Shown here: positions 28,320 through 47,910 of the stretch, piece by piece
How positions within the stretch are numbered: position 1 is the stretch's first letter
Layout: each line of letters begins with the position of its first letter
DNA from: Candidatus Shapirobacteria bacterium
GTDB lineage: Bacteria; Patescibacteriota; Microgenomatia; UBA12405
NCBI GenBank assembly: GCA_016188545.1
Contig: JACPHO010000001.1
Span: 14,249-78,248, forward strand
DNA: 64,000 nucleotides
Direction of reading: 5' to 3'
Notes under the pieces: model-generated
Seen by the model: only the letters and a program-made list of their open reading frames with translations
Told to the model about the DNA's origin: nothing
Database searches by the model: none
Position numbers and translations under genes: made by a program

Positions 28320-28754
28320 CTGGCTAATCTTTTCACAAAACTCAACTGAGTATTTATCACCAAATGCCTTTGAGGCATCAAGAGGTGACATCCATTCAAA
28401 ACTATCGTGTTCATAGTTTAACTTAATTTCTCCATCTGCCACTTCGGTCTTATAGATAGCCAGTATTAATCCCACGTCTCCGGCGATTTCGTTTTTCAAT
28501 CTAATCTGGGAAAATACTGTTGCAAAATAAGATGAATTTACAACTGTATAACCAGTTTCTTCCATCACTTCCTTGGCCAATGTTGATCCTATAGTATCAC
28601 CCCTCTCCACTCTGCCCCCTGGGATATCGTATTTCACCCCGCCGGTGTATCCCTTTACATTTTCAATTGCTTTCTGGCTAACTTTTAAAACTAATATTTG
28701 ACCCTTTCCATTACTAATAATTGCTTTGACACCGAGGTTAGATAAGTCTTCCAT
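28308..28754 (-). CDS. NUDIX hydrolase
   Basis: 148 aa; GGRVERGDTIGSTLAKEVMEETGY. Confidence 0.7.
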   Translation of the reverse strand: MEDLSNLGVKAIISNGKGQILVLKVSQKAIENVKGYTGGVKYDIPGGRVERGDTIGSTLAKEVMEETGYTVVNSSYFATVFSQIRLKNEIAGDVGLILAIYKTEVADGEIKLNYEHDSFEWMSPLDASKAFGDKYSVEFCEKISQLTF

Positions 28755-28760
28755 AGCCGA

Positions 28761-29534: not shown

Positions 29535-29976
29535 CTATTATAATGGAGATATGGATCATATCGCCATCATGAACAAGAAGCTTGGCTTAATTGACCGAAT
29601 TTTATCGGGAAGGAAAAAAGTTGAAACTCGTTGGTACAAAAATAAAATTGCCCCATATAACCAGATATCTGCAGGAGAGACGGTTTATTTCAAAGATTCT
29701 GGCAGTCTGGTTAGAGCCAAGGCCAGAGTCGCCAAAGTCGTCCAATTCGACAACTTAACCCCCACCAAAACAAAAGAAATAATAAGTAAGTACGGCCAGG
29801 AAATAGACGTTACCGACCCAACAGATCTTTCTTGGACATTGGGTAAAAACTTTGCCATTTTAATTTGGCTAGGCGACGTCAAAGCAGTAAAACCTTTTCA
29901 AATAAACAAAACTGGCTACGGCACCGGTTGTGCCTGGCTTGTCGTCAAGAATGTTGATATAATCAAAGCCGATTAA
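29515..29976 (+). CDS. ASCH (PUA-like) domain protein
   Basis: 153 aa as given (probable start at the internal Met near 29551); ILSGRKKVETRW ASCH-type motif. Confidence 0.5.
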   Translation: MILIFITYYNGDMDHIAIMNKKLGLIDRILSGRKKVETRWYKNKIAPYNQISAGETVYFKDSGSLVRAKARVAKVVQFDNLTPTKTKEIISKYGQEIDVTDPTDLSWTLGKNFAILIWLGDVKAVKPFQINKTGYGTGCAWLVVKNVDIIKAD

Positions 29977-29994
29977 AACACTATGTTTTAATTT

Positions 29995-30066
29995 CCAGCA
30001 GGAGCCGGGCGGTTAGGCAATGGTCTGTAAAACCATCATAAGTAGGTTCAACTCCTACCTGCTGGA
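29995..30066 (+). tRNA. tRNA-Tyr (GUA), class I (short variable arm)
   Basis: acceptor ccagcag/ctgctgg; anticodon stem atggt/accat with loop CUGUAAA (the Tyr loop); T-arm gtagg-TTCAACT-cctac; discriminator A; 5-nt variable region. Confidence 0.55.
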
Positions 30067-30112
30067 CAAGACACTGGAGTATACTAATTGGATTAATGAT
30101 TAAACATAATCC

Positions 30113-31330
30113 ATGTCAGAATTCAAACTTAATCCAACATTTATATCCCAAGAACAACTAACTAAACCTGGTAATCCTGGTTCTGAGTCAATTCTGCCAA
30201 ATACAAACAGGGGGGGCTTTGATAAATTTACTCAAATCTATCAAAATATTTCAACATCAAATGCCACAGATCAAAGAAAGCAGTTCGAACAATCAAAAGT
30301 AGCGATTAGTGAAATACTCAGGGACACACTTACATCTGAAACCGTCATCGAAGTGCAAAATCCGTTTCAAAATGAGACAGATAACGATAAAACAATTAAT
30401 GTCCCACTCGATCAATACATCCAGTATTGGCAGCGCGACTTAGAAACTACTTTTGCCGCCCAAGATAATTTCGTAGCAATTTGTGAAGGAAAACTGTCGG
30501 GAAAACTACTAAAGCACGACAAAAATAACCCTTCATTATTTGTTAAAACAGCTGATTTATTAATTGGACATCTAACCAATGCCGGTGAGCCAAACGACGA
30601 GAGTAAAACGAAAATTGCCGAATTTGCCCTAAAACAACTTGAATCGACTACCACCAAGAAAATTGATGCACCGAGTGCTATCACTGCCGTTAATTTGGTC
30701 AATGCCGTATTTTATTGCAATGGAACCACAAAAGAGAAATCTGCTGAAATGTTGCCTCACGGATTGAATGTCATGCAAAACATAGTAAGAAACCAGCAGT
30801 TTAAAGATAAAAAACAGTATCCAACAAATATAAAAAGCAAATCGCTAGACGAACAACAGGCAATAAGACAAAAAGTGAACCTGGATAATCTTGACATTGA
30901 CTTTCACAATCAACAAGCAGAATCAGTGCTGCAAGCAATTGCCAAAACATTGTCGTTTCCACTTGATTACAGCCTAGACCAGGCAGAACCGTTGTTTAGT
31001 AGACTGCAAGATGTATTTACAAACGACAAAGCAGTACTTAATGATTTCAGAGTAAAAACGATTAATATGTACAAGGACGTGTTGCTAGATAAATTTAGGG
31101 ACCAGGCTATGAATCCACTACCGGAGACATTACTAAGCATGCCCAATGAGCAGCGGGCATCAGTTGTGACTACGGCCATTGGTTTATTGAAATTAATTTA
31201 TGACCAGGGTTACGATAAAACTGCCAGCCAGTTGCAGTTCAAAATACCTGACATTGCAATAATGTATATCATGCACAAAAAAGATAATAGCTATCGTGGT
31301 CCACAGACAGAGAGGTTTGTGAGGGTATAA
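30113..31330 (+). CDS. hypothetical protein
   Basis: 405 aa; no TM, no recognisable motif. Confidence 0.45.
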   Translation: MSEFKLNPTFISQEQLTKPGNPGSESILPNTNRGGFDKFTQIYQNISTSNATDQRKQFEQSKVAISEILRDTLTSETVIEVQNPFQNETDNDKTINVPLDQYIQYWQRDLETTFAAQDNFVAICEGKLSGKLLKHDKNNPSLFVKTADLLIGHLTNAGEPNDESKTKIAEFALKQLESTTTKKIDAPSAITAVNLVNAVFYCNGTTKEKSAEMLPHGLNVMQNIVRNQQFKDKKQYPTNIKSKSLDEQQAIRQKVNLDNLDIDFHNQQAESVLQAIAKTLSFPLDYSLDQAEPLFSRLQDVFTNDKAVLNDFRVKTINMYKDVLLDKFRDQAMNPLPETLLSMPNEQRASVVTTAIGLLKLIYDQGYDKTASQLQFKIPDIAIMYIMHKKDNSYRGPQTERFVRV

Positions 31331-31332
31331 CA

Positions 31333-32307
31333 ATGGTACGAAAAACAGTAGATCGCCCCAACTTATCCGAAAACATCGTTCAAATAATAGAGAAGTCAGG
31401 TGAATATGGAAGCTCTTGTTGGCTAAGAGCCCAGGGGTTGATGGATAAATTAGTAGATGAAGGTATTGTGACAGTCCAAGCTGTTGGACTTAAGCCCCTT
31501 ATGGGGGATATGTCTAGGCCAGGCCATGTAGGGCTAATCATATTCAATAAAATGGTTTGGATTGATTCGGGTGACGGGCTGGGTTCTGCAACACATGACA
31601 TTAGTCCAGAAACTGTATTATCACCAAGATCAATTCTACACAACGGGACATATTACCGAGTTTTTGAGATAACCAGTGATAGACAAGAGTTTGAAGAATT
31701 CGTTGCGGTTCACAACTCTTTGTCTGATCTGGGCACTGATGTCAATGAACTGTTAGTAAATAATGGAACAGATCCTGAGATGGGGAAGGTTCTGTGGAAA
31801 CTGCAACTGCTCTCAGACAAGTTGGAACATTTTTTTGGAGTTGACACACAGTTGTCACAAGAATCACAACGAGAGTTATTGATAATGTTTACTGACACTT
31901 TTACGAAGACTGCAAAACACAACTTATCTGAACATTCAAGCGAGAATATGAATGAACTACTTAAAGGGATAATCTATCGACCTGAGTTTCTGTTGCAAAT
32001 GGTAATCGAGGAATCAGAAAGGCATCAAAACTATCTACACAAAACAGTGTCCAGGATTGCAAATGTGCAGAGCTTAGACGATGTAAACATTAGAAGCTGT
32101 GATGATTTTTGGAAAGAAGCAAATGACAGATTTAAATTATGGGAAAATTATTCAAAAAACATTACTTGCTTGTTAAAAGTTGGACATCCAATTTATTCAC
32201 AATCGACACCGAAGGAACTTGTTGACGCTATACAAGACTCTCTAAACAAAGTGCTGTTAGAAACATTGGGCTATATACGTATGTATAAGGAGGAAGGTGA
32301 AAATTGA
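31333..32307 (+). CDS. hypothetical protein
   Basis: 324 aa; starts 3 nt after the previous gene (operon); no motif. Confidence 0.45.
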   Translation: MVRKTVDRPNLSENIVQIIEKSGEYGSSCWLRAQGLMDKLVDEGIVTVQAVGLKPLMGDMSRPGHVGLIIFNKMVWIDSGDGLGSATHDISPETVLSPRSILHNGTYYRVFEITSDRQEFEEFVAVHNSLSDLGTDVNELLVNNGTDPEMGKVLWKLQLLSDKLEHFFGVDTQLSQESQRELLIMFTDTFTKTAKHNLSEHSSENMNELLKGIIYRPEFLLQMVIEESERHQNYLHKTVSRIANVQSLDDVNIRSCDDFWKEANDRFKLWENYSKNITCLLKVGHPIYSQSTPKELVDAIQDSLNKVLLETLGYIRMYKEEGEN

Positions 32308-32574
32308 TCCATTTCATCATTAATCCTGTATAGAAAGCACTAAAATACATAACGCTGAGCCAATTTTTCAACTGGTTAGTGGGCACGAGAGTCTCCTAAA
32401 TGGAAATTAGGTTAGCCATAATCCGTTTCCATCATACCAACATTCTCTTGACAGTCTTGTCATCTTCCATATTCTTTATTGCTGTGTGCGAGTTTTTCTC
32501 GTACGCGTAGCTTTCTAAATGAGAATGGAATAGAGCCGTAGCATAGTTTTATATCGTTTTGATACAATGTCCTC

Positions 32575-32895
32575 ATGAAAATAGAAACACTTACAGCCTG
32601 GCAACTAAGTGATTCTCCAGCATGCAATAGTGAGGCAGAAGAAATAATGGGGGAATTAATAAGGATCTCAGCTGATGCACAGGAGTGGAAACCAGTGCCA
32701 GTGACGGAGTTGGACAGACTATTTACGGGGGTAACCACAAGAGATAACCTGGAAGCACCCCTAAGAGAAGGCGTAATCAATCTAAGGACATCAGGACTAG
32801 TAACTCTGGAAGATGTCGATGGTGTCCGCTCTATAGTTGTCACTGAGAAATTCAAGACGTTTTATGAGAAAGCTTCTCAGAAAAAGTTGCCCTAA
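32575..32895 (+). CDS. hypothetical protein
   Basis: 106-aa ORF. Confidence 0.3.
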   Translation: MKIETLTAWQLSDSPACNSEAEEIMGELIRISADAQEWKPVPVTELDRLFTGVTTRDNLEAPLREGVINLRTSGLVTLEDVDGVRSIVVTEKFKTFYEKASQKKLP

Positions 32896-32922
32896 AAACT
32901 GAATATCTCCATTTCCACCTAG

Positions 32923-33390
32923 TCAAGTCGCAGACAGATATTTCTTAATCGTTTTTTCTCCTGCTTTCTTTCCATCAACCTTGAAAAACGCCAAATATCT
33001 AAGCCAACTGCCCATATTTACTTTCTTCATTGTTGTTAGTATCAAGTTTGCAATCTTTTCTGTCGTCACCCACTTCTCTTTGGACAGTATTAACCTTTCT
33101 TCAACTTTGTCAAAAATTCCTACCGCCACAATACCAGCACTCCCTCTATCCAACTTTTTTTCGCCAACTACCGCATGATATATCGACGAATATAACTTTG
33201 CTCCAACATACTTAACTCTTTTTCCTGACTTTTTAACAACTGTAATATGTGCCAGATCAATTTTTTCATGAGTCGTAAATACAAATTCACACTTCAAGCA
33301 CTTCCTCCTTCTCCAAATTTGAGTTCCTTTATTGGTTGGTCTCGAGTTAGTGACTTCAATTTGTTCGCTTCCACAACTTGGACAAAACAT
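32923..33390 (-). CDS. nrdR: transcriptional repressor NrdR
   Basis: 155 aa; N-terminal zinc ribbon MFCPSCGS...CLKC followed by an ATP-cone (VVKKSGKRVKY). Confidence 0.8.
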   Translation of the reverse strand: MFCPSCGSEQIEVTNSRPTNKGTQIWRRRKCLKCEFVFTTHEKIDLAHITVVKKSGKRVKYVGAKLYSSIYHAVVGEKKLDRGSAGIVAVGIFDKVEERLILSKEKWVTTEKIANLILTTMKKVNMGSWLRYLAFFKVDGKKAGEKTIKKYLSAT

Positions 33391-33520
33391 ATCTATATAT
33401 TGACATGTAACTATAGATTTATCAATTTAAATATTAATTATAAACCTAAAACAGTTGTCATGCATATCTACATCATGTTCTATCAAGTAGGCCGCTATTA
33501 ATTTTAAATATAAGTATCAA

Positions 33521-33907
33521 ATGACCAAAGACCATAAAACAGAAATTATAATTAGTGAACCAGAGCAGATATCATTGTTTGTCAGACAAGCCAATCACTT
33601 TATAGAATCAAAACTATATTTGGGAGTCCACACCATCGGATCCAACCCAAGTGGGGTAATTTCATATCCTACTGGAAATGTTGAAAACTCAACTCTGAAA
33701 CCAACTGTCAAACCTGTATCCATAACCCCACCTTTTAGAATTTCCTTTTCACAAAATGATGAGGACACTAGTGTTTTTCACTCGAATTGTGAATTCTCAC
33801 CTGATCCATCACAGGATTGGATGCTGGACATTCTAAAATACCATTTCGCCCGTGCTGTCGCCACTTCTCTTCCAAAACCAAGATCACCTACTTCTATTAA
33901 CAGTTAA
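33521..33907 (+). CDS. hypothetical protein
   Basis: 128-aa ORF. Confidence 0.3.
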   Translation: MTKDHKTEIIISEPEQISLFVRQANHFIESKLYLGVHTIGSNPSGVISYPTGNVENSTLKPTVKPVSITPPFRISFSQNDEDTSVFHSNCEFSPDPSQDWMLDILKYHFARAVATSLPKPRSPTSINS

Positions 33908-34223
33908 ATCAAGTATGAACAATATAGTTCTTAGTCAGCCAAGCAAAATTTACTCAATTGTTAATTCGCTAAACGACTCAGACATTTTCAGCTCAATAAA
34001 TATTAGCTCATTTAGTGCTGGCCAAGACTATCTCAAGTGGTTGGCCCCGTCGCTAGAATATCCCTGTATTTTCAATCCTTACTATCTTTTTTATCCATTC
34101 AAAATAGGCTATGGTCCACGACCATTCATTACATTTACTGATGAAATCGGCGAAAACAAACTCTTGCTCGATCAGGTCAAAACAAAAATACTGGCGATAA
34201 TTCTAAATACATCAAAGTTTTGA
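33852..34223 (+). CDS. hypothetical protein
   Basis: 123-aa ORF; overlaps the previous ORF in another frame. Confidence 0.25.
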   Translation: MLSPLLFQNQDHLLLLTVKSSMNNIVLSQPSKIYSIVNSLNDSDIFSSINISSFSAGQDYLKWLAPSLEYPCIFNPYYLFYPFKIGYGPRPFITFTDEIGENKLLLDQVKTKILAIILNTSKF

Positions 34224-34381
34224 TGCAGTTATTTGTAGTGTCAGATATTAGGCGAGAATTAAAAAGCATCAGGCAATACCGTAAAAAACTGGGGTTAAAC
34301 TAAGCCAGTTCTTGATTTTACTTTTCTAAATACTTAGTATTAATTATCACTAAAATAATTAAGGCACCACTTCTTTGCATT

Positions 34382-34798
34382 TTGTTTTTGATATTAGGTT
34401 TTTTTATAGGCAATAAACTGCAGCTACAAAAAGAAAAATCATGGTTTGAATCCATCAAACCAGTCCCCTTTGCCGGTGTCCAACAATATGCCACTTATTA
34501 TTACCAGGTAGATGATGATTTACCTAAATTTAAAGTTCAGGCATCAACATTTATCGAAGATCCGTATAGTGAGTTGTGTAATGATTGTGTTAATCAAGAA
34601 ATAAAAATTGGCAAAAACGAGATAACTTTAATGACCAATCCTAATCGAAAAAATCCTATATCAATCTATATTGTGCCAGAAGAAAACTACGGCAGTATCT
34701 ATAGTTTTCAATATTATCAACTTGATCAAAAGGGAAACGAAATTGAGTTTGAAGATGGCGTAAAGGAGGAAATTATAAGAGAAATTGAAAATTGGTAG
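34382..34798 (+). CDS. hypothetical protein (putative secreted)
   Basis: 138-aa ORF with N-terminal hydrophobic segment. Confidence 0.3.
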   Translation: MFLILGFFIGNKLQLQKEKSWFESIKPVPFAGVQQYATYYYQVDDDLPKFKVQASTFIEDPYSELCNDCVNQEIKIGKNEITLMTNPNRKNPISIYIVPEENYGSIYSFQYYQLDQKGNEIEFEDGVKEEIIREIENW

Positions 34799-34811
34799 AA
34801 CTATTTAATAA

Positions 34812-35675
34812 CTAGTCACGTTCTTCAATCAGTCTTTCAACTGCCTCCGCTGTTTCTTCTGGTTTTTCCACTGTCAACACATGTCCTGCCTCATCAACTT
34901 CCTCAATATGATATTTACCCCTACCATCCAGTAGTTTTCTTGCTTGAGTCGCATTAGTTAGCTTATCGAATTTTCCGAAAATTAGATCAATTGGGATAGT
35001 ATTATTTTCAATTAAGTCATCGATGTGAGTCTTTGAAATCGCCATCCCCATATCCACATAAACTTCCTTCGACGCCTTTAACTTCCCCTCAAAACCTGTC
35101 TCATCGATTATTTTCTTATCAAACTTATACATATTTATATGTTTGGCAGTGAAATAGGTATAGCGTTTTGTATCGACAATCCGCTTAACCGCGCTCATAG
35201 CTAATTTGCTTTTGCGAAGCAGCCGATACATCACTCCCATAACTTTCACCATCGCTGTTTTATTGTTTTTTAAAAACATTGGGGCAATCAGAATTATGTG
35301 ACTAGCTACTTTTGGATGGCGGCTATAAAAAGTCGATACTACATAAGCCCCCATCGAATGACCCACAACTACCGGTTTTTTTATCTTCATACTTTTGATA
35401 AAACCAGCCAGATAATCCGCTTGGTTCCTAAGATTATAAGAATCTAGTCGGTCGCTATCTCCAAAACCGGGAAGATCTACCCCGATAAATTGATACTCTT
35501 TATATAGATACCGTGCCATTGGGATAAACCCCTTCCAATTATTTGTCCATCCGTGCACAAACACGAGAGGACGACCTTTTCCCGAAGTAGCATAGTGTAT
35601 AACAGTATCTCCAACTTTTACCTCTGCTTCCTTAAATATTGCTACTTTGGCACCTTTTGTGATATCTTTAGACAT
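34812..35675 (-). CDS. alpha/beta-fold hydrolase
   Basis: 287 aa; HGW...; nucleophile elbow GHSMG. Confidence 0.7.
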   Translation of the reverse strand: MSKDITKGAKVAIFKEAEVKVGDTVIHYATSGKGRPLVFVHGWTNNWKGFIPMARYLYKEYQFIGVDLPGFGDSDRLDSYNLRNQADYLAGFIKSMKIKKPVVVGHSMGAYVVSTFYSRHPKVASHIILIAPMFLKNNKTAMVKVMGVMYRLLRKSKLAMSAVKRIVDTKRYTYFTAKHINMYKFDKKIIDETGFEGKLKASKEVYVDMGMAISKTHIDDLIENNTIPIDLIFGKFDKLTNATQARKLLDGRGKYHIEEVDEAGHVLTVEKPEETAEAVERLIEERD

Positions 35676-35677
35676 AG

Positions 35678-36739
35678 ATGTATCTTAGCAAACTTCACCT
35701 TAATTTCTTCCGTTCTTATCAAGATAGACTGATCGAATTTGGACCAAAAACAAATCTTATTGTCGGTCACAACGGTACTGGTAAGACCAATATTCTTGAG
35801 GCTATCTACTTCCTATCTTCTGGTAAAAGTTTCCGAAGTAGTGCCTTAGGTCAACTCCTCAAGTGGGACTCAACATATACTATCGTCACTGGAATAATCA
35901 ACCTCAATGATCACCAGACTGAGCTCGAATGTCAGCTCAGTAAAGAAATTGGAAAAGTTTCTGCAACCCGTAAATTTTTTATCGACAGAGTCGTCAAAAC
36001 CCGTCCCAAATACTTAGGTACCCTCAAAACTGTGGTCTTTGAGCCTGAGGATATCCGCCTTGTCACCGGTTCACCTTCTCGCCGCCGTGATTATCTCGAT
36101 AGTGTCTTTAGTACTACGCAGTGGCGTTATGCTGGCGCTCTTTCCCAGTACAACCGTGCTCTCAAACATCGTAACGAGCTATTGGACATGATTCGGGAAA
36201 ACCGCTCAAACAAATCAGAACTTTTTTATTGGGACCAATCTCTGATTAAAAATGCCACTATCATCCAAGATTTTCGTCAAAACTACATCCGTTCAGTCAA
36301 TCGTTACTTTAGTCAGCATGCTCTATCCGAAATACAACAACTTTCTCTCAATTACCGACCCTCCACTCTCTCCCAAGAAAAATTAGATCAACAGTATATT
36401 ACTGACCTCAACTTTGGCTACACTCAAGCTGGAATTCATCGTGATGATTTTAGCTTTGACAGTAAAGCCTTTTCAGCTTCCAACAAAAATCTGGCTTTTT
36501 GGGGGAGCCGAGGACAACAGAGGTTGTCGGTCCTTGCTCTCAGATTAGCCCAGATCAACTATCTCGAAGAGACATATCACCAAAAACCCATCCTACTACT
36601 GGATGATATCTTCTCAGAACTTGACCCGGAACACCGCCAACTAGTAGTCGACATTTGCCAAAGCTACCAGACAATCTTTACTTCAGCCGAGAGTACTACT
36701 TGCGATATCTTACCTACTTCTCAACAGATAATCCTCTGA
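35678..36739 (+). CDS. recF: DNA replication and repair protein RecF
   Basis: 353 aa; Walker A GHNGTGKTN; signature/Walker B LLLDDIFSELD. Confidence 0.8.
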   Translation: MYLSKLHLNFFRSYQDRLIEFGPKTNLIVGHNGTGKTNILEAIYFLSSGKSFRSSALGQLLKWDSTYTIVTGIINLNDHQTELECQLSKEIGKVSATRKFFIDRVVKTRPKYLGTLKTVVFEPEDIRLVTGSPSRRRDYLDSVFSTTQWRYAGALSQYNRALKHRNELLDMIRENRSNKSELFYWDQSLIKNATIIQDFRQNYIRSVNRYFSQHALSEIQQLSLNYRPSTLSQEKLDQQYITDLNFGYTQAGIHRDDFSFDSKAFSASNKNLAFWGSRGQQRLSVLALRLAQINYLEETYHQKPILLLDDIFSELDPEHRQLVVDICQSYQTIFTSAESTTCDILPTSQQIIL

Positions 36740-36776
36740 ACTAAACTTACCCCCTGCACAAATGATGTTTTTGTAC

Positions 36777-36782
36777 TATAAT
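36777..36782 (+). promoter_or_regulatory. putative -10 box (TATAAT) of the 16S rRNA promoter
   Basis: tttgtacTATAATagc about 140 nt upstream of the 16S 5' end. Confidence 0.25.
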
Positions 36783-36923
36783 AGCTACACAGTCGTTGAG
36801 ACTGTTTTCTTTTGTACATTAACATTCAATCACTTTATTTGAAGCCACGGCTGTTAGTGCCAGAAGGATGACACCGATAATTCGGTATTTCTTTCTAAAA
36901 AATTATCCCGATCATTCGGGATT

Positions 36924-38501
36924 TGTACTAAGAGTTTGATCGTGGCTCAGGGTAAACGCTGGCGATGTGCCTAAGACATGCAAGTCGAACGGGATTTGTA
37001 GTCTACACGAAGACATTGATAACTTCTTAACTTTTTTTAAGTCTTTCCACTTTTGGAATATTTTTTTGAACTTTGATAAGAATCGATTATTGTAATCATT
37101 TCGATGTTTTCGTGTAGATTATAGATTCAGTGGCGAACGGGTGAGTAATGAGTACGAACGTACTCTCAAGCGGAACATAGCCCACCGAAAGGTGGGGTAA
37201 TTTTCCATAGTCTCGAAAGAGTAAAGACGCAAGTCACTTGAGAAGCGGCGTACTTGCCACCAGCTAGTTGGTAGGGTAACGGCCTACCAAGGCTATAACG
37301 GCTAACGGCTCTTAGCGGAGAGTCCGTCACAATGGGACTGAGACACGGCCCATACTTCTACGGAAGGCAGCAGTTAGGAATCTTGCACAATGGACGAAAG
37401 TCTGATGCAGCGACATCGCGTGAAGGATGAAGGCTCTCGGGTCGTAAACTTCTTTTATTTTGCCATGAAGGCATTTTGAATCAGCAACTACTAACTACGT
37501 GCCAGCAGTCGCGGTAATACGTAGGTTGCAAGCGTTACCCGGTTTTATTGGGCGTAAAGCGTCTGTAGGTGGTTTTATAAGTCTTATTTCAAAGACTCCG
37601 GCTCAACCGGAGATAGGGGTAGGATACTGTAAGACTAGAGTGATATCGGGGTTACTGGAATTTTTAGTGTAGGGGTAAAATCCGTGGATACTAAAAAGAA
37701 CACCAAGCGCGAAGGCGGGTAACTAGGTATTTACTGACACTCAGAGACGAAAGCTAGGGTAGCCAATCAGATTAGAGACCTGAGTAGTCCTAGCCGTAAA
37801 CTATGTATGTTAATTCTCTGCAATTTATTGTGGGGGATGTAAGCTAACGCGTTAAACATACCGCCTGGGGAGTATAGCCGCAAGGCCGAAACTCAAACGA
37901 ATTGGCGGGGAGGCGCACAACCAGTGGAGCATGTGGTTCAATTCGATACAAAGCGATGAACCTTACCTGGGTTTGACATTTATCTGCAAACCCCCAGAAA
38001 CGGGGGAATCCTTAGAGGGTGATAAACAGCTGTTGCATGGCTGTCGTCAGCTCGTGACGTGAGTTGTTCTCTTAAGTGAGGTAACGAGCGCAACCCCCAT
38101 CCGGTGTTATTGTGTCACCGGAGACTGCCTAGCATTATTTTGTTAGGAGGAAGGAGGGGACGACGTCAAGTCAGCATGATGCTTATGTCCAGGGCTACAC
38201 ACATCCTACAATGGGGAGGACAATGGGTCGCGAAACCGCGAGGTGGAGCCAATCCCACAAACCTTTCCTCAGTTGGGATTGCAGGCTGAAACTCGCCTGC
38301 ATGAACCCGGAATTGGTAGTAATCGCGCATCAGCAGCGCGCGGTGAATACGTTCTCGCCTCTTGCACACACTGCCCGTCAAATCAACAAAGTTGGGGGTA
38401 CCCGAAGCTTGGCCTTTGGCCGAATCAAGGTAAATCCAGCGATGAGGGTTAAGTCGTAACAAGGTATCTGTACTGGAAGGTGCAGATGGATCACCTCCTT
38501 T
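36924..38501 (+). rRNA. rrs: 16S ribosomal RNA, divergent (CPR-like), with ~100-nt AT-rich expansion in helix 6/V1 (~36995-37118)
   Basis: AGAGTTTGATCGTGGCTCAG at the 5' end; GTGCCAGCAGTCGCGGTAATAC (515 site with C>T); ATTAGAGACCTGAGTAGTCC; CTGCCCGTCA; AAGTCGTAACAAGGTA; GGATCACCTCCTT at the 3' end. Confidence 0.9.
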
Positions 38502-38645
38502 GAGGATTTCTTTGAAAATATGTTCTATGGTTCGCCCAAAAAACAGTTTTCATTGCATGAATCAAGCTCTTTCTGGTACTAACAGTATTGGCTTCTTTAA
38601 AGTGATTGAATACCTGCCCGCCTGTGGTGGGAAAAAGAAAATTAA

Positions 38646-38674
38646 AAATCTCCCAGCAATGGGGGATTTTTTTG
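38646..38674 (+). terminator. rho-independent terminator after 16S
   Basis: aatctcccagcaatgggggatt hairpin followed by a T7 run. Confidence 0.5.
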
Positions 38675-38699
38675 TATCTAATGACTAAAAGCAAATACT

Positions 38700-39449
38700 T
38701 TGTTAAAATCCATCGACCAAACAACTATGGCAGATATTCAAACCAATCCTAATCTAGACCTTCAAAAATTACCCAAGCACGTCGCGGTCATTATGGATGG
38801 AAACCGTCGCTGGGCTAAAAGTCGGGGTATGGGTTCAACCGAAGGCCATCGTCAGGCTGCTCTAAATACTATTGAACCAATTATCGAAAGATGCGGCGAA
38901 CTGGGTATTAAATACGTTACCTTCTGGGCATTCTCCACCGAAAATTGGAAAAGAGACGAAGAAGAATTAAAAGGCTTATTTGATGTTTTTCGTCTTGGAT
39001 TGGCCTCACTGGCCGCTCGTTTTATCCAAAAAGGAGCCAATCTGCGTATTTTAGGTGACATTAACCGATTTCCTGCGGACATCGCCAAAAAGACTTTGGA
39101 AATGATGAGTCAGTCTAAAAAGAACGATAAAATATTTGTCACTTTTGCCCTCAACTATGGCGGCCGCGATGAGATCCTCCGAGCAGTTAAAAAAATTGTC
39201 AATGAAAAGCTCCTCTCTGACTCCATCACTGACGAAGTGTTTTCTTTACACCTAGACACCGCTGGCATCCCTGACCCTGACCTTATCATCCGCACCGGTG
39301 GTGAGCAAAGACTATCCGGTTATCTCCCGTGGCAGTCAGTTTACGCGGAACTTTATTTTGTATCCACACTTTTTCCAGACTTCAGTCCAGTTGAGTTTGA
39401 AAAAGCACTATTTTGGTATCAGCAGCGCGACCGCCGTCTCGGCAAATAA
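38700..39449 (+). CDS. uppS: undecaprenyl diphosphate synthase
   Basis: 249 aa; HVAVIMDGNRRWA, FSTENWKR, RTGGEQRLSGYLPWQS. Confidence 0.85.
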   Translation: MLKSIDQTTMADIQTNPNLDLQKLPKHVAVIMDGNRRWAKSRGMGSTEGHRQAALNTIEPIIERCGELGIKYVTFWAFSTENWKRDEEELKGLFDVFRLGLASLAARFIQKGANLRILGDINRFPADIAKKTLEMMSQSKKNDKIFVTFALNYGGRDEILRAVKKIVNEKLLSDSITDEVFSLHLDTAGIPDPDLIIRTGGEQRLSGYLPWQSVYAELYFVSTLFPDFSPVEFEKALFWYQQRDRRLGK

Positions 39450-39452
39450 AAT

Positions 39453-39779
39453 CTAGTTCTTATTTGTAAATCTAACACCCGGTACATTAGCACATTGTAA
39501 CTGATTAAACACTTTTAAATTTTCATCTCTGGTTGTTAATACCGTCTTCCCCCGATTTAAAGTTACTACAACACCTCTTATCGCAACATCATCAACCAAA
39601 ATTGTTACTGGATTAAGTGAATTTCCAAATTCCAACATCACAGTTCCTTTGGTACTTGCTGTCAAGTCTCTCACAACATTGTAAAGTGATGGTTCGCCGT
39701 CAACAATATCAACCTCCAGACTACCTCCAACAACTCTCCTATTTAATAAAACATTTTCTATCAATATGTTTTTCTGCAT
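39453..39779 (-). CDS. hypothetical protein
   Basis: 108-aa ORF. Confidence 0.3.
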   Translation of the reverse strand: MQKNILIENVLLNRRVVGGSLEVDIVDGEPSLYNVVRDLTASTKGTVMLEFGNSLNPVTILVDDVAIRGVVVTLNRGKTVLTTRDENLKVFNQLQCANVPGVRFTNKN

Positions 39780-39791
39780 ATGTCAAATGTC

Positions 39792-40073
39792 CTACAAAAA
39801 CTTCACCCCAAATACCACTTGCACCAGCTGGGCAACAAAGTAAGCAATGAAAATTATGATAAATCCGATAATTCCCGCCGAGATTTTACCGTATCCTGAC
39901 TTTGATTTTGCTGGGTCACCACCAGCAGTCATCAATCCAATCCCTCCAGAAATAATCATTAAAAGCATTGCCAGTCCAGCAATGACATATACATAAGGCA
40001 ATGCCGCGTTCACCACCGACCCTAAGTTGGGAAACTTGTTACTAACTGCATCTTTCGGAAGAGTTATTGCCAT
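39792..40073 (-). CDS. small two-TM protein, T4SS-pilin-like (TrbC/VirB2-like family common in CPR)
   Basis: 93 aa; two hydrophobic helices separated by TAGGDPAKSKSG. Confidence 0.4.
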   Translation of the reverse strand: MAITLPKDAVSNKFPNLGSVVNAALPYVYVIAGLAMLLMIISGGIGLMTAGGDPAKSKSGYGKISAGIIGFIIIFIAYFVAQLVQVVFGVKFL

Positions 40074-40074
40074 A

Positions 40075-40482
40075 TTAGTTAATTCCTGGAATTTTTAATA
40101 TCCCCACAGCAATTAGTCGCAGGAGGAACAGTGCAAATATCGAAAGAAGTAATCCAGTTATTGCTGAGGTAATTGTTTCCTGAGCTCCAGCCACTTTTTT
40201 TGGATCACCACTGGAAGTGGTTAACAGAATAAATCCATAAACCATTAATAAGAAAGCAATTCCTCCGGAAATGCCAAACATAAACGGCAATAGCCAGGCC
40301 ACAAAGGCATCTATTTTTACCGGCACACAACCAAATGCAGTGTCTACTTTTGGATCATTTCCTGTTTGGCAAAATGCTTTACTGGCGGCAGCCTGGACAG
40401 GACTTACACAATTCGCCATCAAAACCATCACAAATAACAGTACTTTCGCCAATTTCCCTAAATGCATACCCAAGTATAACAT
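40075..40482 (-). CDS. small two-TM protein, T4SS-pilin-like, with signal peptide
   Basis: 135 aa; signal peptide then two TM helices with TSSGDPKKVAG between them; paralogous to the adjacent gene. Confidence 0.4.
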   Translation of the reverse strand: MLYLGMHLGKLAKVLLFVMVLMANCVSPVQAAASKAFCQTGNDPKVDTAFGCVPVKIDAFVAWLLPFMFGISGGIAFLLMVYGFILLTTSSGDPKKVAGAQETITSAITGLLLSIFALFLLRLIAVGILKIPGIN

Positions 40483-42238
40483 GACCTATTCAATGCTAAA
40501 ATTATTAGTGGTCCACAAATTTATATTTATTTTTACTCTTTACTCTTTACTTTTTACTTTTGTTGGCAGAGTATTTGCCGACGAGGTCGATGATTGTATC
40601 AAAAATAATCCCGGTAATCAGGACCCATGTATTTCCCTTATTAGCAAAAAAATAACCGACCTCCAAAATGCTATTAACCCACTTCAAAAAGAGTCCACCG
40701 GACTCCAATCCAAGATCACCTCCGCTAAAGTAACTATTGCCAACATGGAGAAACAAATTGTGACATTGGGTGAAAAGCTGATCAACAAAGAAACCAACTT
40801 AGAAGTCCAAAAGACCTTGTTGTATGAGCGGGTTCGCCAGTACTATATCAACAGTCGAAAATACAACCCTCTTCTGGTCTTTTTCTCCAGCCATGAATCC
40901 ACTTCTCTTTTGCGGTCTTACTCGTGGTACCAGGCGGTTATTAATCAGGATAAAAATACTATCACCACCTATGTTTCCGATATTTCCAGCTTAAATCAAA
41001 ACAAAACAAAACTAGAAAGTGAAAAAACTAAATTAGCTTCACTCAAAAAAACCTTCGAATCTCGAATCACTTTTCTTGGCGGAGAAATTAAAAAAGCCGA
41101 AGCGTATAAAGCTGACCTAAGTAAACGCCAACAGTCCTTAATTGCTGAAAAAAACGCTCTCTTTTCAACTAGTGTCGGAGATGTCAGTAGTAGTGACGAT
41201 CCTGCCTCACGCTCGGACTACAACCCTGGCTTCTCACCAGCCTTTGCTGTCTTTTCCTTCGGAGCCCCGCACCGCAACGGTATGAGCCAATACGGCGCTT
41301 TCGGTCGGGCCAAAGCCGGGCAAAACTACGAAACAATCCTCAAAGTCTACTATGGTGACATTCGTGTCGAAAAAATCGACACCGGTAGTTCCATCAAAAC
41401 TGATGTTGGTACTTTGCCTTTTGAGGACAACTATTTAGTTGGAATTGCCGAAATGCCGGCCAAATGGGGTGATGAGGGTGGTTATGAGGCTCTCAAAGCA
41501 CAGGCTATTGCTGCTCGAACCTATGCTCTTAGTCGCACTGAAAACTTGAACAAACAAATTTGTGTTACTGAAGCCTGTCAGGTCTATAGTAAATCACGTC
41601 TTAATTCTCCCGGTCGTTGGCGTCAGGCTGTTGCTGATACTCGGGGTATGGTTGTCAAAAGTAACAAAACTGGCCAAATTTTCTCTACCAAATACGCCTC
41701 CACCTCTGGTGGCTCAATTCTTTCCTATTCCTCCTCAGGTCACTCAACGCCTATGTTGTGGGACACCACCTGTGGTAATCAATCTTGCTGGCCTAGTAGC
41801 TCTTATGAAAAGTCGGCTGGGTCTGCTTGGTATTACAAAGGTTGGTACAAATCGCGCACCGGATCCGCTTACGGGCGTTCTCACCCTTGGTTAAACAACG
41901 AAGAGTTTAGTGACATCGTCAACGCTGTTTTATATTTCACCAAAACTCAAGACCAAAGTCACCTTTCTCAGAACCAAAACTGTATTAGTGGTTGCGATCC
42001 GGACTCATGGTCGAGAGATGAATTAAAACGTCAGGTCTCTGATAAAGGTGGTCCGGTAACACGAGTTAATTCAGTTAGCGTCGACTATTCCACAGGTGGC
42101 TATACTAAGACCGTCCGTGTCGGTACTGATAAGGGTGACTTGGTTTTTGATGGGGGAGACTTCCGCGACATTTTTACCCTCCGCGCCCCTGGCGCTCTTA
42201 CCGCCAAATCCGGGTTATTCAATATCGAGAAAAAATAG
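40481..42238 (+). CDS. SpoIID/LytB-domain protein with N-terminal signal peptide and coiled coil
   Basis: Start placed at the internal Met (MTYSMLKLLVV); coiled-coil region; C-terminal SpoIID/LytB motifs GMSQYGAFGRAKAG, YLVGIAEMPAKWGDEGGYEALKAQAIAARTYAL. Confidence 0.7.
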   Translation: MTYSMLKLLVVHKFIFIFTLYSLLFTFVGRVFADEVDDCIKNNPGNQDPCISLISKKITDLQNAINPLQKESTGLQSKITSAKVTIANMEKQIVTLGEKLINKETNLEVQKTLLYERVRQYYINSRKYNPLLVFFSSHESTSLLRSYSWYQAVINQDKNTITTYVSDISSLNQNKTKLESEKTKLASLKKTFESRITFLGGEIKKAEAYKADLSKRQQSLIAEKNALFSTSVGDVSSSDDPASRSDYNPGFSPAFAVFSFGAPHRNGMSQYGAFGRAKAGQNYETILKVYYGDIRVEKIDTGSSIKTDVGTLPFEDNYLVGIAEMPAKWGDEGGYEALKAQAIAARTYALSRTENLNKQICVTEACQVYSKSRLNSPGRWRQAVADTRGMVVKSNKTGQIFSTKYASTSGGSILSYSSSGHSTPMLWDTTCGNQSCWPSSSYEKSAGSAWYYKGWYKSRTGSAYGRSHPWLNNEEFSDIVNAVLYFTKTQDQSHLSQNQNCISGCDPDSWSRDELKRQVSDKGGPVTRVNSVSVDYSTGGYTKTVRVGTDKGDLVFDGGDFRDIFTLRAPGALTAKSGLFNIEKK

Positions 42239-42957
42239 TGCCCGACTTTACTGCCGAAAATTATCCAAAAAGCTTCGGTACTGTTGACTCTCACAACTTT
42301 CGACTCAAAAGTTATCTCGACCTATCAAATCGTCAGTTGTACTTTGTCGACAAAAAATTTTGGGATTTCATCAACCTTACCGCCCACCAAATAATCCCTA
42401 TTACTGTATACAAAAACTATCAATACCTCGCCCACGGCTGGGAATGGTCAGTGTTTCGTGATGGAAATTCTGTTATCAAAATACCCTCAGGTAAATTTAT
42501 TGAAGTAAATGACCCAAAGTATCTCGACAATACCAAAACAGCCTATGGTCTAATTTGCCAATATTTCCCATCAAAATTTATTGCCCAAACTACTTTTGAA
42601 AGAAACCAAGGTCTAAATATCATCACTCAAGAGTATATTTCCGGCAAGTCAAATTTCAAAATTGGCTACCACTCTCAAAACAAACTATTACTTCGCAACC
42701 TCCAAAAACTACTTGAATCAATGCTTGCTTTACTAAGGGCGCACAATTGGCTTCCCGACTTCGACATTCATCGTGACCACGGCGGTTTTGTGTTACGAAA
42801 CATCATTTTTACCAAATATCATTGTCCCAAAATCGTCGACTTCACCGCCTATTACGATGTTTATCGGCTTTACCCCTACCGTCAGCAAAAAGAAATACTA
42901 TCCAAGCGCCGTCAAATCAAAGACTTTCTCAGCTGGATCAAACAAAAAAATGGCTAA
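42238..42957 (+). CDS. protein-kinase-like fold phosphotransferase (putative)
   Basis: 239 aa; DIHRDHGGFVLRNIIF...IVDF resembles HxD...N catalytic loop plus DFG-like motif. Confidence 0.35.
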   Translation: MPDFTAENYPKSFGTVDSHNFRLKSYLDLSNRQLYFVDKKFWDFINLTAHQIIPITVYKNYQYLAHGWEWSVFRDGNSVIKIPSGKFIEVNDPKYLDNTKTAYGLICQYFPSKFIAQTTFERNQGLNIITQEYISGKSNFKIGYHSQNKLLLRNLQKLLESMLALLRAHNWLPDFDIHRDHGGFVLRNIIFTKYHCPKIVDFTAYYDVYRLYPYRQQKEILSKRRQIKDFLSWIKQKNG

Positions 42958-43471
42958 TTCAATCCTCATCTATGCCTTTAGCAACCAATGGGCCACCAAT
43001 ATCTCCCGACGTGTCTTATCAGAACTCCAAAATAACCTAAAATCATCTGACATTACCTTCCTCCCCATCCACTATCATCCCAAAAGCTTTTTCAAAAAAC
43101 ATATTGAATTCAATAATTATTCCTTAATTATCGGTCTGGGGGATTTCTTCGGTAAAACAGACAAAATTAGATTGGAAACAATCACTCACAACGTCTATGG
43201 TGAAAATTCAATCTATCCGTTTTCCCCAATCAATTTAGAAATATCCCTCCCTCCTCTTGACTGTCTTGACACCCGTATTTTTACAGTTGGTGAGCATATG
43301 GGCAAATACAATTGCAATTGGTTAGCCTATTCAACCGAGCTCTACATCCAGCAATATTCTCCCAACACCAGACAACTATTTTTTCACCTCCCCAAAACCC
43401 AAAAAGCCACCATTCTGGCAAATCAAATTATTACAATGTTCAAAAATAATAGTATTTTGCCCTATTCATAA
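42950..43471 (+). CDS. hypothetical protein
   Basis: The annotated ORF 42773-43471 overlaps the previous gene out of frame; a more plausible start is the Met at ~42950 (MANSILIYAF...). Confidence 0.35.
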   Translation: MANSILIYAFSNQWATNISRRVLSELQNNLKSSDITFLPIHYHPKSFFKKHIEFNNYSLIIGLGDFFGKTDKIRLETITHNVYGENSIYPFSPINLEISLPPLDCLDTRIFTVGEHMGKYNCNWLAYSTELYIQQYSPNTRQLFFHLPKTQKATILANQIITMFKNNSILPYS

Positions 43472-43476
43472 ATCAT
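43465..43476 (+). promoter_or_regulatory. TTCATAAATCAT motif instance (promoter-like), upstream of 43511
   Basis: exact 12-mer; TATAAT at 43500-43505, 5 nt before the ATG. Confidence 0.3.
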
Positions 43477-43510
43477 ATGTCATAAAACTTAAATCATTGT
43501 ATAATTCACT

Positions 43511-44254
43511 ATGCCTCGAGTTTCTGATGTTGATACTATTGCCCCAGATGATCAAATAACTTCAACCCCTACTCCATCTCCAGTAAAAAAATCTGTGACC
43601 CTCAAAAAAGATAAGAAAGTCACTAAAACTCCAGAAGTTGTCACCTCCTTACCAACTACACCTAATACAAATCCTTTGGTTGAAAGTGTCTACAAAATTC
43701 TGGGCCACACCCGCCACCCTTTTTCTTCAACCCTAATCCATCCCCATGTTTTTGACTTTCAGGAAAGGGACGACGACGAAATTGTCCTAGTTGTCGCTCG
43801 ACAACATTGGTTCACCAACGTCAGGTGGATACTTATCAGCTTATTCATGGTTTTATTCCCTTCACTCTTTCGTTTTGTTCCTACTTTACTCGAAATCCCC
43901 GGTACCTATCTTTTTGTGGGGTATTTGTTTTGGTATCTCATTACATTTGCTTTTGCCTTCGAAAGTTTTCTCTCTTGGTATTTTAATGTTTATATCATTA
44001 CTTCCAAAAGAGTTATCGATATCGACTTTAACAATCTATTAACCAAAAAATATTCTGAAGCTACTATCGATGCCATCCAAGATGTTACTTCTACAGTCAT
44101 TGGTGCAATCCCCACAGTGTTCAACTATGGCAACGTCCTTATTCAAACCGCCTCAGAAGTCAACGAGCTCGAGTTCGGCAGAGTAGCCAATCCTGAAAAA
44201 ATTATCAAAGTCCTTCAGGAAGTTCGTGACCAATACAAAGGAGGTCAAATCTAA
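43511..44254 (+). CDS. bacterial PH-like (bPH_2/YdbT-like) membrane protein
   Basis: 247 aa; P/T-rich N-terminus, two TM helices then PH-like domain (IVLVVARQHWF...). Confidence 0.5.
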   Translation: MPRVSDVDTIAPDDQITSTPTPSPVKKSVTLKKDKKVTKTPEVVTSLPTTPNTNPLVESVYKILGHTRHPFSSTLIHPHVFDFQERDDDEIVLVVARQHWFTNVRWILISLFMVLFPSLFRFVPTLLEIPGTYLFVGYLFWYLITFAFAFESFLSWYFNVYIITSKRVIDIDFNNLLTKKYSEATIDAIQDVTSTVIGAIPTVFNYGNVLIQTASEVNELEFGRVANPEKIIKVLQEVRDQYKGGQI

Positions 44255-44472
44255 TGTTTCCCCAAATCAACACCTACATGCTCCTGGTTCAAAAATTTTC
44301 TTTTGTTCTCGGATCAATTCTTTATCTACTTTTCGCCTTTATTGTAGTCAAGCAAACCACCATGATGAGCAAAAATGTCAGCGATAAGTTCAACACCGTA
44401 CTAATAACATTTGCCTACCTTCACGCTGCATTTGCCATATTTCTTGTTTTTCTCACTCTTACTATCTTATAG
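44254..44472 (+). CDS. small membrane protein
   Basis: 72 aa; two TM helices. Confidence 0.3.
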   Translation: MFPQINTYMLLVQKFSFVLGSILYLLFAFIVVKQTTMMSKNVSDKFNTVLITFAYLHAAFAIFLVFLTLTIL

Positions 44473-44814
44473 TCTGGGTGCCATTACTGTTCCAGTCTTG
44501 CTTATTCTTATTGTGACACTTTCATTTTGGACACTTTTAATTGCACTGTTAACACACCAACCATCGTCACCTTTTTCGCCAAGGTAGGCCCCCATGAAAG
44601 TTACTCTGTCTCCTTTTTTTACATAAAGCTCAGCCAAACTTGGGCTAGCTGTCACTGGTATAACGACAACATCATAACTCGCACTTCTACCCTCCTCGCT
44701 ATTTGATGCGACATGAATATTTTTGGCATTACGTAATGTTGCGTTAATTTTTTCCAGAGCATTTTCAGCAGCAACAATCTGTTGCTTATCCATTGCGCCT
44801 CTATGGTTTTTCAA
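44467..44814 (-). CDS. hypothetical protein
   Basis: 115-aa ORF. Confidence 0.3.
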   Translation of the reverse strand: MKNHRGAMDKQQIVAAENALEKINATLRNAKNIHVASNSEEGRSASYDVVVIPVTASPSLAELYVKKGDRVTFMGAYLGEKGDDGWCVNSAIKSVQNESVTIRISKTGTVMAPRL

Positions 44815-44953
44815 GTCGTTTTCAATGCAACTAGAATGAATTATGATATTTATATCTCGTCCAGTTATATCCTATATTATACAATAAGTTGACTATAAAA
44901 TCAATGTTACCTATTAAATTTGTAATCTAAAAAATTCAGTTTACACTTAATTA

Positions 44954-45298
44954 ATGAAGATTTCTCGTTTTGAAGAAATTTTAGTCTGGCAAAAAACCAA
45001 GCCATTTATTGTCGAAATCTACAAATCATTTTTAAATGTCGGCGACTATTCATTCAGAGACCAGGTACTTCGTGCCAGTGTTTCAATTATGAATAATATT
45101 GCCGAAGGTTTTGAAAGAGGCTCCAATCCTGACTTCAAAAAGTTTCTTTACATTTCCAAAGGATCAGCCGGTGAGGTCCGCTCCATGCTCTATCTTGCAC
45201 TGGACTTATCATATATTACCCAAGAAAAATCCGCTAAACTTATACAAGAGACAGAAGAGATCTCAAAAATGTTATCTGGCTTAATTAAAGTACTTTAA
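44954..45298 (+). CDS. four-helix-bundle protein (23S rRNA intervening-sequence protein family)
   Basis: 114 aa; ...SIMNNIAEGFERGS...FLYISKGSAGEV... typical of PF05635/TIGR02436. Confidence 0.65.
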   Translation: MKISRFEEILVWQKTKPFIVEIYKSFLNVGDYSFRDQVLRASVSIMNNIAEGFERGSNPDFKKFLYISKGSAGEVRSMLYLALDLSYITQEKSAKLIQETEEISKMLSGLIKVL

Positions 45299-45355
45299 TA
45301 CTAACTTTATGAACCTTACAAACTTTATAAACTTTTTAACTTTATAAACTCAATT

Positions 45356-47206: not shown

Positions 47207-47250
47207 GATAATCACATAGTTTTGTCTTATTCATACTTCTTAAATCATAT

Positions 47251-47261
47251 TTCATAAATCA
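47251..47261 (+). promoter_or_regulatory. TTCATAAATCA motif instance immediately upstream of smpB start
   Basis: ttcatacttcttaaatcatatTTCATAAATCAatATG; upstream TTCATA plus 17 nt plus cATAAAT gives a -35/-10-like geometry with the ATG 4 nt after. Confidence 0.3.
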
Positions 47262-47263
47262 AT

Positions 47264-47668: not shown

Positions 47669-47674
47669 TAGGCT

Positions 47675-47908: not shown

Positions 47909-47910
47909 TT

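Follow-up and report, generated by a model that had tools for sequence, protein, structure and literature searches.

A stand-alone 16S rRNA gene of Candidatus Shapirobacteria with an AT-rich helix 6 hairpin, primer-site differences and no linked 23S

The subject of this study is a 16S rRNA gene of Candidatus Shapirobacteria and the AT-rich hairpin that it carries in helix 6 of variable region 1 (V1). The gene lies within a stretch of 64,000 nucleotides (nt) of contig JACPHO010000001.1 (positions 14,249 to 78,248), which was analysed as a whole and is referred to as the window; features are located by their positions in it. Flanked by a recF-like gene and uppS, the 16S gene occupies 36924-38501 on the forward strand (1578 nt) and matches positions 1-1533 of the Rfam model SSU_rRNA_bacteria (RF00177). 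The complete model is covered with a score of 1322.7 bits against a gathering threshold of 50, which falls in the range displayed by the 16S genes of 18 relatives (1173-1345 bits). The first-pass annotation had assigned 36924-38699 to the gene. A 16S gene is present there, but its end had been placed too far downstream; the rRNA stops at 38501, and the remainder consists of trailer and terminator. When aligned with MAFFT, the gene is 68% identical to that of E. coli and has deletions near E. coli positions 200-215, 455-480, 1130-1145 and 1440-1460 that are usual in the Candidate Phyla Radiation (CPR). The GC content of the 16S gene outside V1 is 49.5%, and that of the 64-kb window 40.4%. Direct reading of 38466-38490 indicated that the helix 45 stem is compensated. 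This is the only 16S gene within the window, and a single copy is usual in CPR genomes. We conclude that 36924-38501 is a normal, functional 16S rRNA gene.

Relatives were collected from GTDB species representatives with a pattern that combined the 515 and 806 signatures of the gene, which gave at least 119 loci (designated here by L numbers). The titles of the matches listed are mostly Candidatus Shapirobacteria, Gottesmanbacteria, Woesebacteria, Microgenomates or Patescibacteria, with other phyla in some of them; seven of the loci do not group with Microgenomates. The closest among the matches listed, at 98.7% 16S identity, is L114, a metagenome-assembled genome (MAG) titled Candidatus Shapirobacteria SO_2017_GW1_99, followed by L062 (95.4%, also titled Candidatus Shapirobacteria), L095 (about 95%) and L115 (93.8%). 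More than 50 listed loci have a 16S identity of at least 82%, and these are mostly titled Candidatus Shapirobacteria. The window gene carries the signatures of this clade, namely the recF-16S-uppS order, U1400, a TCAG/CTGA helix 24 and a helix 6 of 26 bp. The neighbouring genes, with T4SS-pilin-like proteins, DUF5657 and many open reading frames (ORFs) without a family, fit a CPR genome. Judging from this comparison within Microgenomates, the gene belongs to an uncultured bacterium of Candidatus Shapirobacteria (Microgenomates, CPR/Patescibacteria). The CPR/Patescibacteria origin proposed in the first-pass annotation agrees with this, as the listed relatives are nearly all CPR-titled and the nearest is a Shapirobacteria MAG.

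Concerning the flanks, the gene directly upstream of the 16S unit is recF-like (35678-36739, +), and its product matches Pfam SMC_N (RecF/RecN/SMC N-terminal, E = 6e-26). A sigma-70-type promoter-like site (TGCACA, 16 nt, TATAAT) with 10 of 12 consensus positions follows at 36755-36782 (+). Both CTGCACAAA and TATAAT are unchanged, within variable flanks, in six relatives whose 16S is 92-99% identical, and the site probably acts as a promoter. After a small hairpin (36789-36805), the leader contains a boxA-like element, TGTACATTAACAT (36813-36825, +), most of whose positions are invariant in six relatives while the flanks vary. The element agrees at 9 of 13 positions with UGCUCUUUAACAA, which we take to be the boxA consensus of the E. 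coli rrn operons, and a role in antitermination seems plausible. Inverted repeats I2 and I3 in the leader (36824-36868, +) pair with the trailer (38568-38611, +) in a duplex about 45 bp long around the 16S alone. The duplex was present in all 19 relatives tested, at -65 to -97 kcal/mol (z from -4.7 to -12.2). Bacterial RNase III normally cuts leader/trailer stems of such a kind, releasing pre-16S. The unit ends with an intrinsic terminator-like element at 38644-38673 (+), in which a hairpin with a 12-pair stem and a 4-nt loop (38644-38671) is followed by seven T. An equivalent hairpin with a T run lies 66-145 nt past the 16S in 18 of the 19 relatives. The next gene is uppS, encoding undecaprenyl diphosphate synthase (38727-39449, +; Pfam Prenyltransf, E = 7e-75). 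This arrangement is shared. Among listed relatives with enough flank, 33 of 65 have recF upstream and 31 of 62 have uppS downstream, in both cases on the strand of the 16S; the order recF-16S-uppS on one strand is found in about 30, which is essentially every Shapirobacteria-level locus with enough flank.

We could not identify a 23S or 5S rRNA gene linked to this unit. Searches with Rfam at gathering scores gave no large-subunit or 5S rRNA match in the 64 kb, that is, in 36.9 kb upstream and 25.5 kb downstream of the 16S, and the E. coli 23S had no blastn match in the window. A 23S was likewise absent by blastn from all 62 listed Microgenomates loci in which the 16S 3' end is complete and followed by 1.5 kb or more of sequence; as a control, the identical search detected 23S in non-CPR loci of the scan. 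In 18 Shapirobacteria loci, Rfam reported only the 16S and an upstream tRNA, without 23S or 5S. The conserved promoter and terminator suggest that the 16S is transcribed alone, apart from 23S and 5S. Transcription would begin at the promoter at 36755-36782 and run through the leader with its boxA-like element, leader and trailer would pair into the duplex of about 45 bp, an RNase III-type cut would free pre-16S, and the terminator at 38644-38673 would halt transcription ahead of uppS, with the 23S and 5S genes sitting elsewhere in the genome. The first-pass annotation had described a hairpin plus a T7 (seven T) terminator followed by uppS, no linked 23S, and transcription separate from 23S and 5S. 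The hairpin, the seven T and uppS are all in place, the absence of 23S holds for the 64 kb and for the loci of 62 relatives, and separate transcription is further supported by the invariant promoter-like element, the 16S-only duplex, the terminator in 18 of 19 relatives and the gene order in about 30.

Misassembly of 16S genes is a notorious problem in MAGs. Either the V1 insert or the joins to recF and uppS might be chimeric, the true genome having a normal V1 and a linked 23S. Logan contigs of SRR12113420 match the window from 25678 to 37290 (recF through V1) and from 38149 to 49449 (16S 3' end through uppS), each with zero mismatches, although these contigs may share their source sample with the window and break within this 16S, at 37290 and 38149. 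The identity across both stretches means that recF is joined to V1 and the 16S 3' end to uppS. The same insert, 95% identical, is also found in L114, a MAG from a different study, and in L125, a metagenome contig of the Joint Genome Institute (JGI), and the recF-16S-uppS order occurs in about 30 MAGs from many projects. A chimera in V1 was one of two conditions under which the first-pass annotation would have given up its claim, the other being an adjacent 23S in the true genome, and we saw no such chimera: the Logan contigs, L114 and L125 all reproduce the insert. With contigs, insert and gene order in agreement, misassembly was rejected as largely refuted, and we consider it very improbable. 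Gene identity, lineage and stand-alone organization, taken jointly, are well supported, to a degree close to certainty. As an aside, the breaks in the Logan assembly of SRR12113420 lie on both sides of the conserved 16S core, which illustrates why 16S genes are missing in many CPR MAGs.

The sites of common primers were then compared with the gene, using the IUPAC forms of the primers. Mismatches numbered one for 27F, 515F, 926R and 1392R, two for 341F, 806R and 1492R, and three for 805R. The 515, 806 and 1400-region strings quoted in the first-pass annotation are all present, and its prediction of primer bias now has measured values of one to three mismatches in each of eight primers. The single 515F mismatch lies in the 530-loop region (37489-37517, +) at U525 (37509). 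U525 occurs together with A506 (37490) in 110 of 110 loci examined. The two residues belong to the 505-507/524-526 pseudoknot, which we take to be established and which was reportedly described by Powers and Noller in 1991; as A506 accompanies U525, one pseudoknot pair is kept. The two 806R mismatches lie in helix 24 and the 790 loop (37767-37790, +). Here the pairs are 783-799 U-A, 784-798 C-G and 785-797 A-U, followed by G-C, and they covary across the clade as TCAG/CTGA, GCAG/CTGC and CCGG/CCGG. The change at 515 and the three in the stem at 806 are therefore compensated changes of a pseudoknot and a helix, and not decay. On the other hand, G793 in the 790 loop (37777), which belonged to the scan pattern used to find the relatives, and U1400 (38372), the single mismatch in the 1392R site (38364-38378, +), are unpaired lineage signatures. 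Of 50 Shapirobacteria-level genes, 48 have U1400; of 41 other Microgenomates, 8 do, and most have C. In addition, all tabulated Shapirobacteria-level genes, as well as the other Microgenomates that were scorable, have A966 (37948) instead of the bacterial G966. With one to three mismatches in every common primer tested and an amplicon length shifted by V1, the lineage is expected to be under-counted in amplicon surveys, an issue already known for CPR.

In E. coli, C1400 stacks on nucleotide 34 of the P-site tRNA and has been called universally conserved; a C1400U mutant is viable with 53% of control translation activity, and a G966A mutant keeps 32% activity (PMC2709574). U1400 and A966 are thus two P-site residues, flanking tRNA nucleotide 34, that are both changed in this lineage, which naturally carries them at positions that have been described as universally conserved (1400) and as conserved among bacteria (966). 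Such residues, together with an identity to E. coli of only 68%, might indicate a decaying, non-functional copy in which insert and primer-site changes arose under relaxed selection. Taking into account that the SSU model is matched over its whole length, that the changes in helix 24 and the 530 pseudoknot are compensated and common to dozens of species, and that promoter, processing stem and terminator are all conserved, a pseudogene was rejected as most unlikely; the C1400U change itself still allows E. coli to grow (PMC2709574).

We then examined the V1 hairpin (36992-37128, +). Its 137 nt separate GCAAGTCGAACG (36980-36991) from AGTGGCGAACGG (starting at 37129), where E. coli has 32 nt, and the alignment to the Rfam model placed 116 inserted nt in the helix 6 loop. 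The first-pass annotation had estimated about 135 nt against about 40 nt for this interval, with an AT-rich extension of helix 6 by about 100 nt; the measured lengths bear it out, the stem is real, and the extra sequence is in the helix 6 loop. V1 has a GC content of 27.7% and folds into a single hairpin with a minimum free energy of -49.3 kcal/mol (z = -6.7), a value reached by none of 200 shuffled sequences. Its arms (36989-37019 and 37101-37131) pair without a break over about 28 bp, at the tip of a helix that belongs to a variable region. The distal module (37020-37100, +) is 81 nt long with 22% GC. It is present in L114 and L125 and missing from L062 and L115, the nearest relatives at 92-95% identity. 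As the baseline helix 6 of the clade is itself about 26 bp long, only these roughly 81 nt of V1 are specific to the lineage.

No further copy of the insert was found by blastn in the 64 kb or in the related loci beyond the homologous V1, and a repeated mobile element, such as a miniature inverted-repeat transposable element, was dropped as a candidate, the insert being single-copy within the 64 kb searched. The longest ORF within V1 has at most 42 codons. Introns are frequent in CPR 16S genes (PMC11270868), and a self-splicing group I or group II intron was therefore considered. Rfam detected no intron family in the window, and a search with V1 alone at E-values up to 10 gave meaningless matches only, the best being LLnc147 with 22 bits against a gathering score of 127. 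In addition, an ORF-less element of 81-137 nt is below the size of a group I or II core, and the tip of a hairpin in a variable region is off the known intron sites. An intron, or any known RNA family, was thus rejected for V1, and the probability that we leave to a self-splicing intron is negligible. Within the insert, at 37035-37075, there are two runs of seven T, one of them right after a small hairpin (UUCCACUUUUGGAA UAUUUUUUU). The latter resembles a weak terminator-like motif inside the rRNA gene, and the boxA-like element of the leader may aid in reading through it.

The length of V1 was compared across the clade. The distance between ATGCAAGTCGA and ACGGGTGAGTAA, used as anchors, is 148 nt in the window and 22-488 nt in 100 related genes. 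In the core Shapirobacteria, the baseline V1 is 63-76 nt long and forms a near-perfect hairpin of about 26 bp. When the arms of this basal stem were examined in 35 distinct Shapirobacteria sequences, 93.2% of the cells were paired, against 38-45% with slid partners, and both sides had changed in 19 of 26 pairs. The covariation score was 0.674 against 0.27 in shuffles, and none of 500 shuffles reached 0.674. Such strong covariation indicates that the long basal stem is a selected RNA structure.

Long V1 forms (93-186 nt) occupy about ten separate branches of a neighbour-joining tree built from the rest of the gene, and for seven of them the nearest relative, 95-97% identical, carries a short form of 65-70 nt. 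Examples of such long/short pairs are the window and L062, L096 and L045, L040 and L037, L088 and L054, and L009 and L068. The window V1 is about 78% similar overall to those of L096 and L129, and the rest of the 16S is only 86% alike between the window and L096. Among L092, L110 and L030, the V1 regions are 76-79% alike. A metagenome scan with the basal-stem motif gave eight loci, of which L124 and L130 were discarded as chance matches within protein-coding DNA. L126 has this basal stem with yet another distal sequence, the third, and in the short forms from metagenomes the loop is just UAAU or UGGU, exactly where the long forms diverge. V1 length is thus hypervariable in the clade, with recurrent gain or loss at the helix 6 tip. 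Two small distal hairpins are kept between the forms of the window and L096, a comparison of five sequences and three forms only that is too small for a verdict.

The longest insert, 488 nt, was found in L015, a MAG titled Candidatus Shapirobacteria whose 16S is 79% identical to that of the window. It lies at the same helix 6 tip (about 7420-7910 of that locus, -), its ends form a long stem, and it contains an ORF for a 23S_rRNA_IVP protein (E = 1.2e-24) that has a single stop (TAA) in frame. Separately, the window contains a free-standing gene for a 23S_rRNA_IVP protein, a four-helix bundle, at 44954-45298 (+; E = 2e-34), outside any rRNA gene, and the ORF in the L015 insert is related to it.

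Further observations were made on the relatives. The V1 sequences of L106, L128 and L131 are 100% identical, with only 91-95% identity in the rest of the 16S; those of L096 and L129 are 99.3% identical, with 96.7% in the rest. L106 is the gene with the low Rfam score of 1173 bits. Identical V1 in divergent 16S genes could reflect exchange of V1, conservation, or chimeric 16S genes in MAGs. Large insertions elsewhere in the gene were seen in related 16S genes of 1.8-2.5 kb (L020, L074, L060, L093, L079, L099 and L100), and these are presumably introns or homing-endonuclease elements of the sort that CPR are known to carry.

The question that follows is whether the distal module is part of the mature rRNA. 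Helix 6 is the solvent-exposed spur of the small subunit, which the extra V1 sequence lengthens. We slightly favour, at little better than even, that the distal module is an element of the intervening-sequence type that is excised by RNase III. The hairpin has two parts, a basal stem of 26-28 bp common to the core Shapirobacteria and the lineage-specific distal module of 81 nt, and the latter would be a dispensable insert at the hairpin tip that may be gained, lost or exchanged between lineages. The precursor transcript would include the module, RNase III would cut it out within the long stem, and the ends would not be rejoined. The mature 16S would then be made of two fragments, one from the 5' end with about 70 nt and the other of about 1.4 kb, that stay together through base pairs. 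With about 28 bp and no interruption, the stem is suitable for RNase III. We lean towards excision because the module is distributed sporadically among relatives with 95-97% identity, because its GC content of 22% is far below that of the rRNA and of the window, and because V1 is alike in distant lineages (the window and L096) when closer relatives lack the module. The IVP-encoding insert at the same site in L015 points in the same direction, as does the literature, in which short CPR insertions are viewed in this manner (PMC11270868, PMC9297842, PMC9698310).

Several points weigh against excision. The case for it is built from sequence, which cannot tell an excised insert from a retained one. 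A covarying basal stem in all core Shapirobacteria fits a structure of the mature ribosome at least as well, a retained insert on a solvent-facing helix is probably harmless, and the two distal hairpins kept between the window and L096 could point to a separate function of the distal part. A six-frame translation of the 64 kb contained no RNase III signature motif, a result that is uninformative for the whole genome. Two spurious ORFs inside the 16S (38166-38462, -, and 38211-38459, +) were looked up as a way towards transcript assemblies, and neither is on record. The published evidence from metatranscriptomes, as relayed in PMC9297842 and PMC9698310, is mostly on long insertions of the intron type.

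If the 137-nt hairpin instead stays in the mature 16S as an expansion segment, the spur would be lengthened by about 100 Å, either neutrally or as a lineage-specific surface for contact or docking. Helix 6 faces the solvent and can accept engineered insertions in E. coli, and thermophilic anaerobes are reported to have long helix 6 inserts in their 16S. These precedents, the conservation and strong covariation of the basal stem in core Shapirobacteria and the small hairpins kept between two divergent insert forms make retention a serious possibility, though one that we rate below even. A GC content of 22% is unlike that of mature rRNA, the module comes and goes among relatives with 95-97% identity, an IVP-encoding insert occupies the identical site in L015, and RNase III would have to leave a perfect stem of about 28 bp uncut.

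RNase III excision of the module can be extended to the whole clade. The helix 6 tip in Shapirobacteria would then be a hotspot of small, ORF-less, AT-rich hairpin elements that are cut by RNase III, some of them related across lineages whose 16S is otherwise only about 86% identical, and that spread or are lost on within-genus timescales. The 26-bp basal stem in every core member would serve as a conserved cleavage platform, and the whole order would run on split 16S. This wider proposal is tentative and, on balance, we doubt it. If it is true, a whole CPR order runs on naturally split 16S rRNA; current understanding is unchanged unless RNA data show split 16S across the clade.

Other features of the window were also noted. 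A transfer-messenger RNA (tmRNA) of 494 nt at 48251-48744 (-) scores 67.2 bits with Rfam, is about 120 nt longer than the model and was unreported by ARAGORN. Its tag frame, starting from GCC at 48621, has 31 codons (AKAKNFGVNLALDFSGFGLGTSKADLNYAQA, followed by a stop), about three times the length of the E. coli tag; smpB (47264-47668) and an 81-residue GIY-YIG ORF (47911-48156, -) are nearby. A SAM-I/IV riboswitch at 56057-56158 (+; 45.3 bits, just over the gathering score) lies directly before metK (ORF 56084-57253), whose product has all three S-AdoMet synthetase domains, an ordinary arrangement. Two small ORFs with T4SS_pilin (PF18895) matches at 39792-40482 (-) adjoin uppS. GC skew is negative in 31 of 32 bins of 2 kb (mostly -0.1 to -0.33) despite a switch of the coding strand near 30 kb, which recalls the whole-chromosome G/C strand disparity of the Microgenomates genome Ch65 (PMC7143001).

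The hairpin, the primer-site differences and the separation from 23S are real and typical of the lineage, and every one of these traits is on record for CPR, where short ORF-less insertions, IVP ORFs in 16S insertions, a poor match to 515F and 806R, and unlinked rRNA genes have been published. Insertions are carried by 31-48% of the CPR 16S genes surveyed. Some of those listed are short (<200 bp), have no ORF and are not introns, and part of these may be RNase III intervening sequences (PMC11270868); a review states that metatranscriptomes support the removal of CPR rRNA insertions (PMC9698310). The insertions reported by Brown et al. in 2015 are taken here as they are relayed in PMC9297842 and PMC9698310. 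The window insert resembles the short CPR insertions of PMC9297842 and PMC11270868 in exceeding E. coli by at least 100 nt, in being shorter than 200 nt and in lacking an ORF and any match to intron models, and 23S_rRNA_IVP ORFs such as that of L015 are known in 16S insertions. As to position, the text of these two papers, whose site maps are figures, does not name helix 6 (V1) as a hotspot, nor does that text describe the recurrent gain and loss seen here in Shapirobacteria. What we did not find described is modest: the recF-16S-uppS setting with its signals, the 26-bp baseline of helix 6, gain and loss at its tip, and the clade-wide U1400. Short and long helix 6 forms in relatives with 95-97% identity, together with an ORF-bearing form, provide a natural series for the growth of an rRNA helix or the gain of an intervening sequence.

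The V1 intervening sequences of Clostridium paradoxum 16S, reportedly described by Rainey et al. in 1996, are said to be helix 6 stem-loops of about 120-130 nt that are heterogeneous between gene copies and whose excision was examined experimentally. The window insert is similar in size, helix and stem-loop form. Unlike it, the Clostridium inserts occur in a Firmicute with many rRNA operons, where CPR usually have one 16S, and the two have zero sequence similarity. Intervening sequences excised by RNase III from the 23S of Salmonella, Leptospira and Coxiella (PMC4990558, PMC13218044) share with the window insert a location at a helix tip, a long terminal stem, AT-richness, a sporadic distribution and the association with S23p/23S_rRNA_IVP, which is seen here in L015 and is a domain encoded in bacterial 23S intervening sequences (Pfam, PMC11270868). 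The element in the window differs from these in lying in 16S, in lacking an ORF and in being known here from its sequence alone.

Concerning the separation of 16S from 23S, the distance in the window is far beyond that of an operon spacer. Brewer et al. are said to call rRNA genes unlinked when more than 1.5 kb lies between 16S and 23S. Their study (bioRxiv 10.1101/705046) names Patescibacteria among the clades in which rRNA genes are predominantly unlinked, and the Microgenomates genome Ch65 keeps a linked rRNA cluster (PMC7143001). To this known pattern, the present locus and its relatives add, for one order-level clade, a fixed recF-16S-uppS context together with a conserved promoter, boxA-like element, processing stem and terminator.

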